In this document: in pieces, positions 19,581 to 43,804 of the stretch
How the letters are laid out: each line of letters starts with the position of its first letter
Numbering within the stretch: position 1 is the first letter of the stretch
DNA from: Akkermansia muciniphila
GTDB taxonomy: Bacteria > Verrucomicrobiota > Verrucomicrobiia > Limisphaerales > UBA9464
Length of the DNA stretch: 64,000 nucleotides
Assembly (NCBI GenBank): GCA_945861565.1
Contig: CAMAUY010000016.1
Location: 2,556-66,555, forward strand
Direction: 5' to 3'
The notes under the pieces: generated by a model
Told to the model about the DNA's origin: nothing
Databases searched by the model: none
What the model saw: only the letters and a program-made list of their open reading frames with translations
Translations under genes and position numbers: made by a program

Positions 19581-19710
19581 CCCGTTCCGCCCCCTAAGAA
19601 TGCTGCTGGACGAGGGGGCAGACTTACTCCGTGTGGTTCCAAACTCCGGTTTATTGGATTACTGGAATATCCAGGCAGAGGGCCTGATCAAAACGTCTCC
19701 GGACAACCTT

Positions 19711-19859
19711 CGAGTCGAAACGCAAAGTGCCGGGGGGGGGGGGAAGAACCGCGGATTCACACGGATGGACGCGGATAAGAGGAAGCCGTTGCCCCTCACT
19801 TTGATCACTTTCTGAGTGAGCGCCTGGAATCAGCGTTTATCGGCGTTCATCCGCGGTTC
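19711..19859. repeat. Family A palindromic element (inverted copy of 8799-8942)
   Basis: CGAGTCGAAACGCAAAGTGCC-G12-AAGAACCGCGGAT TCACACGGAT GGACGCGGAT...ATCAGCGTTT ATCGGCGTTC ATCCGCGGTTC. The core 19746-19859 is 114 nt, the same length as 8799-8912. Confidence 0.9.
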
Positions 19860-19905
19860 CAAACTTGACTTGTCAGACATCCGAAAAACTCTACGCTCAC
19901 CCTCC

Positions 19906-24853: not shown

Positions 24854-25951
24854 TTAGTTGGGGGTCAGCCAGAATCGTGCGTCCTGACGAATGTGCGCGG
24901 TCGTTGGTCTTGCGCGGAGTCGAGTTCTGACGGGTACCGTTGCCTCGTAGCCAGCCGATGTTGCCGACATCGTGCATCCCGGACACCATCGGTCGGTAAT
25001 TCCAATTTCGGTCCGTTCTCGGGCAAACCGGTTGTTCGCCTCCCGAAACGCGCGTTGACGATAGTAGATTTCCTGCAACCGATCGCGCGCTACTTCCACC
25101 GGCCCCGGGCTCACCCGGCGGTCGCCACGGCTGGCCGAGCTAAATTGCACCAATCCCCATTTCTCGGGCCGATGCATGTCAACGATCCCGGTGGGTGACC
25201 ATACCCAGTTCTCTTCCGGACGGTTCGGAATCTTCTGGTACCGCCCGTCCACGATCTCCGTCTTCCATTGAACGCGGGAAAAATCAACCCGCCAACGATC
25301 TCCATCTCGCGGTGGAGACGGCACCGTGGAGAATTCTCCGAGCGCCTTCCAAGGCATCGCGATTTCCACCGTCCAGTGCCGGTCCACATCCCTCGAATCG
25401 TTCAACGTCCCGTCCACCTGCACCCCCGACTTCAGACCGGCAATATCCCATTCATTCAGAGCGGGAGCGCCGTCTTTATAGGGTCTTACCAGACGCAAAT
25501 CCCAGACGGTGTTCAGCGCGTTCATCTCGAACTCGTAGTACTCGTGAGCGTCACCATCCGGATCGATAAACACCTCGAAATCGTTGTCCTGAAAAATCAC
25601 GGCATCCCGCTGGGTGATGCTCCCCCAGACATGCGGCTCCGTCAGCTGGGCGGCGATGTAAAAAAACTGATCATCCCACAGCATCTTCGCGCGGGTGGCA
25701 TGCCACGGTCGGGGCATCGTCGCGCCCCGAATATCCACAAATTCCGCAGTCCACGCCGCGTTCTGCCACGCCGCCTCGTTCAACCGGCCATCCATCTGCA
25801 AAGTTCCGGAGGCCCGTAGACACAGATACCCGCGAGGAATCATCGGCTTCATGCGCGACCAATCCTCCAGCGAACCTGCGGAAAGGTGAACCGCCAAAAC
25901 GAAAGCGAAAGCGAAAGCGAAAGCGAAAACGAAAGCACGGCGAGCAATCAC
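24854..25951 (-). CDS. Secreted carbohydrate-binding family 9-like protein
   Basis: DGRLNEAAW, TRAKMLWDD, DNDFEVFIDP, YYEFEMNALNTVWDL and WVWSP..DMHRPE.WG motifs. Confidence 0.85.
   Translation of the reverse strand: MIARRAFVFAFAFAFAFVLAVHLSAGSLEDWSRMKPMIPRGYLCLRASGTLQMDGRLNEAAWQNAAWTAEFVDIRGATMPRPWHATRAKMLWDDQFFYIAAQLTEPHVWGSITQRDAVIFQDNDFEVFIDPDGDAHEYYEFEMNALNTVWDLRLVRPYKDGAPALNEWDIAGLKSGVQVDGTLNDSRDVDRHWTVEIAMPWKALGEFSTVPSPPRDGDRWRVDFSRVQWKTEIVDGRYQKIPNRPEENWVWSPTGIVDMHRPEKWGLVQFSSASRGDRRVSPGPVEVARDRLQEIYYRQRAFREANNRFARERTEIGITDRWCPGCTMSATSAGYEATVPVRTRLRARPTTAHIRQDARFWLTPN
25895..25936. repeat. In-frame hexanucleotide tandem repeat, 7 units of consensus GAAAGC, in a signal peptide
   Basis: CAAAAC (GAAAGC)4 GAAAAC GAAAGC; encodes AFVFAFAFAFAFVL on the minus strand. 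Confidence 0.85.
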
Positions 25952-26066
25952 CTCACGATCCTATTCAAGCGGATGCCACCGGTCGAGTCCGGGTGGCGAC
26001 AATTCTTCTGAACGGGTGGACGACAAAAATCTTCACGAGTTCCAGCATCATCCCCGTTACTCCTGC

Positions 26067-26480
26067 AAACGGGCAATGGAGGGCACGGAGTTCCGGAGAG
26101 ATTCGAGTAGAAACGCAAATTGCCGGGGGGGGAGGGAGAACCGCGGATTCACACGGATAGACGCGAATAGGGGAAAGAACCCACCGAACTTAAAGTGCGC
26201 GCTGTGATGCCATGAACCGAAGGCCCCCCCTCACCCGGCCTACGGCCACCCTCTCCCCCGCTCCGAGCGGGGGAGAGGGCAGGGAGAGGGGGCGGTTCAT
26301 GGGCAGGCGTTGCCTCTCACCGTCTGAACCGAACCTGGCATCGGCCGATGGAACCGCGGACGCGAATCCGGCCACCCGAGGATTCAGTGGGACGGCGACT
26401 CCCGCATGACGGTCCGGGATCACCGCCGGCTCCACTCCCTCCCTATCGGCGTGGATCCGTGTCCCTCTGCGGTTCAACTC
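26067..26480. mobile_element. Family A palindromic element carrying a nested CATGAACC cassette
   Basis: Left arm at 26138 (GAACCGCGGAT TCACACGGAT AGACGCGAAT), right arm at 26445-26475. 26171-26307 is an inverted near-copy of 43219-43334. The sequence resumes with CGTTGCCTCTCAC, as in the empty copies. Confidence 0.75.
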
Positions 26481-26499
26481 TTCCAGTCCGAGGGGCGAA

Positions 26500-42854: not shown

Positions 42855-43334
42855 TTTGGAAAACCTCGCTCTCCATGAACCGACTCCCTGGGAGCGCTGG
42901 CATCCTGCCGGCGAGCCTGCAGAAAGGACCAACACCCGCCGGCAGGGATGCCGGCGCTCCCAGGTTCATGGTCTTAATTCATGTCCATTCTTTGGAAAAC
43001 ATTCCTACCCATGAACCGGCTCCATTTCCCAATTCGAGGACGAAGAACGAGCGCGACGGACGAGGACGATTTGAAGGACCCCATTGCGGCGCTTTCGCCC
43101 TCGTCCTCGTCCTTCGTCCTTCGTCCGTCGATGGCGACGAACAGCACACCGGCCTATGTGCCGGGACGCACGGAGCGCGGTTCATGGTCACAATTCATGT
43201 CCATTCTTTGGAAAACTTTCCTACCCATGAACCGCCCCCTCTCCCTGCCCTCCCCCGCTCCGAGCGGGGGAGAGGGGGGGGCTTCGGTTCATGACATCAC
43301 GGCGCGCATTGTTAAGTTCGGTGGGTTCTCTCCC
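42855..43334. repeat. Array of 55-nt GGTTCATG-N39-CATGAACC repeats separating three unrelated palindromic cargos
   Basis: Full repeats at 42963-43017 and 43179-43233 (52/55 identical), a partial repeat at 42855-42881, and a divergent terminal unit at 43286-43334. Cargos are 81, 161 and 52 nt. Confidence 0.9.
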
Positions 43335-43336
43335 GG

Positions 43337-43804
43337 TCACGGCTTAGCCACCGCGCGAAGGCGGAAAAATGTGGCGCTGTTTTCCCGCGGGAGCGTCACT
43401 TGGAATTCGTTGCCGACGGGCTGCGGATTCACCGGAAGGATCTGCCACGTGGAGGGATCCGCGAGATCACGAGAACGTTCGAGCGTAAAGGCACCGGCTG
43501 CCACCGGCCAGGCGAGTACCAGCAATTCACCGATGCGCCCGGCGGAAAGCACCGGCTTCGCGACCACCGGCACCGCGGTCGGGCCAGGCCAGAAACCGGC
43601 CTGCAGAGTGAACGAACCCCCACTCGCCTCCCCCGCATCCGGTTGACCCAGGGTGGCGTTCAGTTCAAAAGTACCCCCTCTTGCTGTGCCACCCCCGGCA
43701 TCAATGCTGATCCAGTCGAGACGGAACGCGTCCGCAGTCTGCCCACCAAGGGAGGTCAGTAGCATCAGCAAAGCCGCAGGTATTTGGCGTATTCGTGAAT
43801 TCAT
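43337..43804 (-). CDS. Small secreted protein with a GQPDAG motif and a verrucomicrobial FFRL-type C-terminal domain
   Basis: Signal peptide, WISIDAGGG...LGQPDAG...LQAGFW, and C-terminal LAWP...TLERS.DL...W...FFRL. Confidence 0.8.
   Translation of the reverse strand: MNSRIRQIPAALLMLLTSLGGQTADAFRLDWISIDAGGGTARGGTFELNATLGQPDAGEASGGSFTLQAGFWPGPTAVPVVAKPVLSAGRIGELLVLAWPVAAGAFTLERSRDLADPSTWQILPVNPQPVGNEFQVTLPRENSATFFRLRAVAKP

Follow-up and report, generated by a model that had tools for sequence, protein, structure and literature searches.

The window, by which we mean the whole 64,000-nt stretch of DNA analysed here, carries at positions 26178-26306 a discrete 129-nt insert inside a family A repeat, and this insert is one copy of a non-autonomous, non-coding mobile unit. 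It is laid out as a 33-nt left-end module, termed T', followed by CATGAACC, a 75-nt hairpin cargo, GGTTCATG and the pentamer GGCAG, and the plus strand from 26171 to 26313 accordingly reads GGGAAAG-AACCCACCGAACTTAAAGTGCGCGCTGTGATGC-CATGAACC-(75 nt)-GGTTCATG-GGCAG-GCGTTGCC. Because AG ends both the left flank and the insert, the position of the insert is ambiguous by 2 nt, with 26176-26304 as the alternative register. The source is a metagenome-derived assembly of 5.9 Mb in 262 contigs with a G+C content of 59.4%. That the unit really moves is, in our judgement, very probable, and the initial annotation, which had proposed that the array units of this window are mobile and have borders marked by a purine word, was right in substance, as judged from nested insertion events and from an empty paralogue of the insertion site.

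Family A is an abundant repeat (154 BLAST hits with E values up to 1e-3), and the 48 copies with at least 120 aligned bases, called full-length here, were aligned with one another. All 48 read ..AAG(A/G)GGAAGCCGTTGCC.. unbroken at the position of the insert and none carries the segment, nor was a unit-type cut seen in the eight partial copies that were inspected. The closest paralogue, G000 C41:29830-29988, is 95% identical over the 165 nt left of the insert and reads AATAGGGGAAAG|GCGTTGCCTCTCACCGTCTGA without a break, GCGTTGCCTCTCACCGTCTGA being identical to window positions 26307-26327 (21/21). Set side by side, the empty site in C41 reads AATAGGGGAAAG|GCGTTGCC and the filled site in the window reads AATAGGGGAAAG-[129 nt]-GCGTTGCCTCTCACCGTCTGA. 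A further uninterrupted family A copy is present in the window itself (19700-19865, plus strand), with the empty site near 19746. The proposals of the initial annotation that the segment interrupts a family A element, and that the copy at 19746 represents the empty site, are thus both upheld. Its suggestion of looking for the uninterrupted allele in close relatives could be followed only in part: both same-genus genomes were examined, but the orthologous intergenic region, delimited by genes with 92/89% and 82/81% identity in the two genomes, is devoid of the whole block 26000-26493, and these genomes therefore cannot supply an uninterrupted family A allele.

The interrupted repeat itself consists of a left part that includes an upstream module (26013-26177, plus strand; 95% identical to C41:29830-29988 and 94% to G002:C73:1780-1938) and a right part (26307-26476, plus strand). 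Within the right part, 26307-26327 matches C41, the divergent centre at 26328-26440 has a sole weak match in the genome, on C33 (70%), and 26441-26476 forms a variant right arm. The block 26000-26498 (about 494 nt), made up of family A with its upstream module, the nested unit and the divergent centre, has a direct repeat of 5 nt, GGCGA, on either side (25995-25999 and 26494-26498). Many family A copies are followed downstream by CCGGTTCATTGGATTACTGGAATATCCAGGCAGAGGGCCTGGTCAAAA and a terminator-like AAAAGGCTGAAAACTGAATCTTTTCAGATTTTTGTC (e.g., G000 C13:43000-43060 and C19:44300-44360), and family A belongs to a larger mosaic, with occasional tandem copies (C10).

Public runs were examined as assembled contigs, which break inside repeats. 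The left junction is bridged by a 173-nt contig from another study's run (X3, record 22) that spans 26129-26218, with 49 and 41 letters on either side of the junction, and the join is therefore not an assembly artefact. At the right junction, a public-run contig (X6, record 30) covers 21 letters on one side only. None of the contigs listed has a joint that skips 26178-26306, which is not informative on empty alleles. RNA-library contigs (X15) fall on parts of the locus, but these parts are repeats, and for this reason the contigs were not counted as transcription. A search of the whole window against Rfam gave no match at gathering score. Compared with the window, contigs of one DNA run and one RNA-library run have CAGTGGG once more at position 26384, as a tandem duplication of 7 nt. 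A series of CGAAAG hexamers occupies 25895-25935, at the start of or just upstream of the minus-strand ORF 24854-25951, and the summed contig depth of the other runs peaks there.

The unit sits immediately 3' of the target motif GGGGAAAG (26170-26177, plus strand), which is part of family A and present as the same 8 nt in the uninterrupted C41 paralogue. T' occupies 26178-26210 on the same strand and is 33 nt long here and 34 nt in most copies (AAYCCACCGAACTTAACAGTGCGCGCCGTGATGC); 16 copies were found in the window's genome and 44 unique ones across three sister genomes. Next comes CATGAACC (26211-26218, plus strand), the 5' arm of a conserved hairpin foot, which in the minimum free energy fold pairs with 26294-26301, where GGTTCATG, recognised by 8-mer occurrence and fold, supplies the 3' arm. 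Between the arms lies the E-type cargo (26219-26293, plus strand), a 75-nt double hairpin (GGCCTACGGCC + CCCTCTCCCCCGCTCCGAGCGGGGGAGAGGG) assigned from its fold and from similarity to a cassette at C9:31824-31924 that is 97% identical to the window cassette. The right-end pentamer GGCAG (26302-26306, plus strand), of the form G-R-N-A-G, is missing from the empty paralogue on C41 and belongs to the unit. The ends can be written as AAYCCACC... on the left and ...GGTTCATGGGNAG on the right, and no clear terminal inverted repeats were seen at them. The stretch 26170-26315 folds at -49.1 kcal/mol (z -6.1), and none of 200 shuffles was as good; the four stretches folded gave z values of -6.1, -5.7, -3.8 and -8.2, each with 0/200 shuffles as good. 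In these folds T' is unpaired, and the foot, CCATGAACC/GGTTCATGG, forms the 8-9-bp base of one long hairpin. In the window, CATGAACC occurs 9 times against 2.38 expected, a count of at least 9 being reached in 0/100 shuffles.

This layout is general: T' or, in arrays, a second module termed L', of about 34 nt, then CATGAACC, an exchangeable hairpin cargo, GGTTCATG and G-R-N-A-G. The genome holds 28 CATGAACC...GGTTCATG cassettes with exact 8-mers at both feet, the smallest of which is 68 nt long, and no empty cassette is among them. Their cargo belongs to a few hairpin families, namely P (an inverted pair of small hairpins, about 80 nt), D (about 165 nt), E (about 75 nt) and several others. Each cassette is preceded by T' or L', apart from a third linker type that occurs once (C33) and is common in other genera, and is followed on its 3' side by G-R-N-A-G. 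L' is represented by 87 unique copies, 55 of them in the window's genome. In one P-type cargo (G000 C1:15380-15700) the loop is in turn interrupted by an element about 320 nt long, bounded by terminal inverted repeats CTGGAGATTGGCCATT; this element is another abundant repeat and occurs also on C38, C13, C8 and at least 20 other contigs.

A second E-type unit lies in the window in the opposite orientation. The reverse complement of 26165-26320 aligns with 43213-43345, from CCT(G/A)CC-CATGAACC to GGTGGGTTCT(T/C)TCCC, with 107 of 114 aligned columns identical (93.9%) and 24 gap columns made up of one 21-nt, one 2-nt and one 1-nt indel, and the two sequences diverge past both ends of the alignment. 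This matches the earlier description of 26171-26307 as an inverted near-copy of the 43219-43334 region, two details of which need correction. The cargo at 26219-26293 had been taken to have gained a hairpin of about 20 nt, whereas the long form, with its GGCC..GGCC hairpin, is the usual one (four of the five E-type cassettes with exact 8-mers), and it is the array copy at 43234-43285 that has lost about 21 nt. What had been called the terminal linker of the array is its leading (left) end, the array being read on the minus strand, and not a trailing one.

The array in question comprises three units (42869-43334, minus strand; row G000_C16 45882). In reading order it consists of the target GGGAGAG (43328-43334), T' (43294-43327), a short E cassette (43226-43293), L' (43187-43225), a D cassette (43010-43186), a second copy of L' (42971-43009), a P cassette (42874-42970) and a final GAGAG (42869-42873), all on the minus strand. 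An open reading frame of 139 aa covers most of it (42875-43294), from the ATG of the first CATGAACC to a TGA formed by the last GGTTCATG-A; a coding reading of this frame was rejected and the frame taken as a repeat artefact because the lengths of the cassettes are not divisible by three. Array growth appears to proceed by insertion of a unit after the right end of the preceding one, which gives head-to-tail arrays of mixed cargo. For arrays of unlike cargo, such as that at 42869-43334, growth by insertion is preferred because tandem amplification would not mix cargos. Another array, in C179:1-1000 (D cassette, L', a P-like cassette and T), ends 80 nt from the stop codon of a truncated tyrosine-recombinase gene, which is present as a 192-aa open frame.

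Both junctions of the window insert recur in at least three other nested insertions of the same genome. On C1, a unit with a 387-nt cargo lies inside an E hairpin and reads GGGGGGAGAG|AACCC...GGTTCATGGGCAG|GGTGGCC; on C212, a unit with a 42-nt cargo splits an E-like cassette and reads GGGGAGAG|AACCC...GGCAG|GGTGCCC; and on C51, a unit splitting another E cassette reads GGGGAGAG|AACCC...GGCAG|GGCAGCC. The recurrence of the same junctions in independent nested events agrees with the earlier suggestion that linker and cassette form one insertable unit. At the loci orthologous to C51 in both sister genomes (L039 and L058), one extra L' unit is present exactly after GGCAG, so that C51 differs from them by one L' unit, gained or lost, whose borders are those predicted. 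Filled/empty pairs between sister genomes at unique loci (L040/C22, L051/C13 and L061/C21) are too diverged to fix junctions.

Alignment of the cassette flanks, which the initial annotation had proposed as a check, produced a consistent junction motif across 44 T' and 87 L' copies. The five bases before T' are G in 40 copies, A in 34 or G in 8, G in 32 or A in 11, A in 43 and G in 42. Before L' stands GGTTCATG, matched in 62-78 of the 87 copies per position, and then G in 81, G in 67, N, A in 76 and G in 86. A purine motif like GG(N)AG is therefore found at both junctions of the window insert, as a GGAAAG-type word on the left and GGCAG on the right, and again after GGTTCATG at array junctions, as had been noted. 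The words at the two junctions differ in origin: the one on the left is part of the target, the one on the right is part of the unit, and they have only AG in common. In T'-started arrays, of which 31 were compared, the pentamer on the left matches that on the right 5 times, each time as GAGAG, the commonest word, while the final right-end pentamers are GGCAG in 10 arrays, GAGAG in 6, GGTAG in 2 and others in 13. The earlier idea that the motif is a target duplication does not hold, because GGGGAAAG is already in the empty paralogue, GGCAG travels with the unit and the pentamers agree in only these 5 of 31 arrays. Most of the 10 T'-started arrays that end in GGCAG continue into the remainder of an E hairpin, which makes the arms of E hairpins the preferred site for T' units. 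Insertion takes place 3' of G-R-N-A-G words, for T' units mainly behind the GGGGAGAG arm of an E-type hairpin and for L' units behind a resident GGTTCATG-GGNAG. Insertion is sequence-specific, duplication-free and end-defined, and the right end of the unit mimics its target.

The junction pattern GGTTCATGGNNAG-N26-38-ACCATGAACC was searched for in other genomes. It was found in 21 of 201 sampled genomes of the order, spread over 16 of 119 genera, at up to 53 copies in a single genome (G043 and G177 have about 50 junctions each), and the reversed control gave none in the same 201 genomes. Outside the order, it occurred in 0 of 398 genomes of a phylum sample; that sample comprised 401 genomes, with the window's own genome as the only positive and two others from the same order. 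Distant members keep the foot, the G-R-N-A-G end and a T'-like leading end behind GGAGAG; their linkers end in ..GCATTGGGAC-CATGAACC, and among the cargos are classical GTAG-tagged REPs as well as REP pairs in inverted orientation. T'-like ends behind GGAGAG are thereby known from further families within the order. E-like hairpins alone are far more widespread and occur in many genomes of the order. The exact L' linker was found only in the window's genome and in two other species records, titled as Verrucomicrobiota metagenome-assembled genomes, and metagenome scans with one T' pattern and one L' pattern returned no matches for either.

The footprints might have arisen without any transposition, by an assembly join or by gene conversion or template switching at stretches of short homology shared between repeats. 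The genome is indeed crowded with similar repeats, its source is a 262-contig metagenome assembly, and GGGGAAAG has a likeness of 5-8 nt to the GGGAGAG that precedes other T' copies. Nevertheless, we consider this explanation very unlikely. Identical end points recur beside four different flanks on the downstream side, the right end invariably falls at G-R-N-A-G irrespective of the sequence beyond it, the left junction is spanned by a contig obtained independently in another study, and the architecture is conserved over 16 genera. Equally little, or slightly less, can be said for a MITE mobilised by a DDE transposase, with a 2-bp (AG) target duplication and degenerate terminal inverted repeats. 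AG does stand on both sides, and by eye the outer end AACCCACCGAAC is weakly like the reverse complement of the right end GCCCATGAAC, but this likeness fades in the commoner T' form AATCCACC, the conserved word of 5-7 nt is on one side only, the equality of left and right pentamers in 5 of 31 arrays and the lack of clear inverted repeats at the ends speak against it, and no full-length partner was found among the left-end copies.

Two site-specific recombination systems also come into question. IS110/IS1111 elements make no duplications and often target REP-type hairpins, and their non-coding end encodes a bridge RNA. A recombinase of this DEDD type, inserting site-specifically at a CT/AG core with an RNA- or protein-guided target, would account for the AG at both junctions in every nested event, for the absence of duplication and for hairpin arms as targets, and the genome has one DEDD_Tnp_IS110 gene (on C69). 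The flanks of that single gene are, however, without T', L' or foot sequence, one gene copy stands against more than 70 units, and left-end modules of only about 34 nt are far below the length of a bridge-RNA-encoding non-coding end; we consider this origin improbable. An integron-like system, in which a tyrosine or serine recombinase moves cassettes, the CATGAAC...GTTCATG hairpins are attC-like and arrays grow by cassette capture, seems to us highly doubtful. The arrays are head-to-tail, the genome has 14 Phage_integrase matches, one truncated copy of which abuts the C179 array, and the hairpin feet begin with ..AAC and end with GTT.., as attC sites do. The junctions, in contrast, lie 5 nt past GGTTCATG and at the outer end of T' rather than at G|TT, the cassettes are without genes, arrays in general have no integrase beside them, and the C179 gene is a 192-aa fragment placed tail-on to its array.

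If the movement is real, we give an even chance to trans-mobilisation by an HUH/Y1 enzyme of the RAYT or IS200/IS605-like kind. The tyrosine enzyme, supplied in trans, would cut and join the unit as a single strand, and the candidate enzyme may act by recognising the conserved foot of the hairpin together with the sequences beside it. In the genome, 13 Y1_Tnp matches above the Pfam cut-off fall into five groups, and the representatives of all five groups match NF047646, the NCBIfam model of REP-associated tyrosine transposases, one of them over its cut-off (87.5 vs 80 bits). Cargos of the GTAG-type REP kind have one orientation relative to the unit ends in 7/7 units, and on the strand that reads GTAG-hairpin the unit is bounded CT|...CT|; E. 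coli TnpA-REP cuts at CT, 5' or 3' of the REP, as described in an excerpt of PMC8266576. For IS608, the target is set by a guide adjoining the foot of the hairpin (PMC8266576). The pairing of two left-end types with two sorts of target, T' after GGGGAGAG and L' after TTCATGGGNAG, fits this IS608-type guide logic. Against an HUH enzyme, the GTAG directly 5' of the palindrome that marks classical REPs is confined to some of the cargos and missing from the conserved foot, T' shows no Watson-Crick guide for GAGAG, and the shared AG/CT dinucleotide fits an IS110-type core equally well.

The genome's own Y1 genes were examined for a link to the units, and none of the groups examined has a distribution that cleanly follows that of the element. 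The genes on C225, C38, C5 and C106 and the two multicopy Y1 groups have no T', L' or foot units in their flanks. The C106 gene and the 322-aa group are flanked by other repeats, in the case of the multicopy 322-aa family by its own inverted repeat, AAGTGACAGGTTCAAT, and not T'/L'. Only on C177 does a Y1 gene lie close to a T', and the sequence downstream of this gene has nothing in common with that of its two paralogues. Across genomes, the 322-aa group was not found in the pattern-positive G027 and G029 and is present in pattern-negative genera, the C106 RAYT was not found in G001 or G002, and the C225-type Y1 has a single orthologue in all three sister genomes and homologues of 55-62% identity in pattern-negative genomes. 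No gene was found between left and right end among 74 left-end copies, in an assembly that is 93% complete and fragmented, and the genome gave no TnpB match (PF07282). The 322-aa Y1 transposase-like family, with 17 matches in G000 (C181, C29, C49, C90, C61, C191 and others) and 31 and 41 in two relatives, constitutes a separate REPIN-like system together with AAGTGACAGGTTCAAT, which also occurs elsewhere as short palindromic pairs (65 hits with up to 2 mismatches).

A wider reading, which we put forward only tentatively and hold to be possible rather than probable, is that of an order-wide hairpin-cassette system. One end-recognising machinery would move interchangeable, foot-framed REP/REPIN hairpins, the left-end type would set the target (T' behind GGGGAGAG arms, L-type ends behind a resident right end), and arrays would grow unit by unit. 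Were this reading true, it would be the first natural record of BIME-like mosaic assembly, and a naturally re-targetable single-strand transposition system without a gene of its own. An excerpt of PMC8266576 describes the spread of REP/BIME sequences as unresolved. Direct in-genome footprints of REP/BIME movement are scarce, and the nested insertions described here, together with a single gain or loss at orthologous loci, fix the ends to the base and supply a target word and a rule of array growth for a family conserved over at least 16 genera of one order. The mechanism becomes testable with a few oligonucleotides and the genome's own Y1 proteins. On the practical side, the units break assemblies and create false ORFs, such as the 139-aa frame over 42875-43294.

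The 13-mers GGGACCATGAACC and GGTTCATGGTCCC had no match in literature full text, a search that figures and supplements lie outside, and the 11-mer GACCATGAACC does occur in literature text, where the matches inspected concern unrelated topics. Integron cassettes share with the present units their ordered head-to-tail arrays, a folded hairpin in each unit and additions beside an existing boundary; in contrast, the present units have their boundary elsewhere than at G|TT, lack an integrase/attI platform and are non-coding. The REP- and attC-targeting IS1111/IS110 elements are alike in their hairpin targets, lack of duplication and shared core dinucleotide, but the ends here are short and no related transposase copy carries them. 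The nearest kin in behaviour are the REP/BIME/REPIN systems and the IS200/IS605 derivatives. With IS200/IS605, the units have in common insertion immediately 3' of a fixed short word without duplication, the absence of terminal inverted repeats, a hairpin near the end and a target that varies with the left end. They differ in having one long hairpin rather than two small subterminal ones, and neither a TnpA-bearing copy with these ends nor TnpB was found. The target words of IS608 and ISDra2 are 4-5 nt long, whereas the word here, at 5-10 nt, is longer.

With the REP/BIME/REPIN sequences of E. coli and Pseudomonas and their RAYTs, the units share an intergenic, high-copy existence as hairpins in mosaics with conserved linkers, the presence of RAYT-like genes in the genome, and cargos that in some units are classical GTAG-tagged REPs or inverted REP pairs. 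In REP/BIME-RAYT systems, a palindrome of 20-50 nt has a conserved tetranucleotide, GTAG or CGTC, directly in front of it. GTAG directly 5' of the palindrome is found in the R-type cargo of a sister genome and in cargos of G027 and G125, and not in E or P cargos or at the foot. On the REP strand, the unit borders show CT, as at the published cleavage site given in an excerpt of PMC8266576. Di Nocera et al., in an excerpt of PMC3733652, describe REP dimers embedded in a constant palindrome of which no empty form was found, and the cargos here are likewise set in a constant foot, which is empty in none of the 28 cassettes. Unlike in REP/BIME systems, however, a foot of 8-9 bp (CCATGAACC/GGTTCATGG) is common to unrelated cargo hairpins, left-end modules of about 34 nt come in several types, arrays are polar and head-to-tail rather than alternating REP/iREP, no RAYT gene is framed by units, and only here, as compared with classical REPs, do clean filled/empty footprints define the ends. 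The shared foot, the modular left ends, the polar arrays and the base-exact footprints are the four features in which these units differ from both REP/BIME/REPIN and IS200/IS605.
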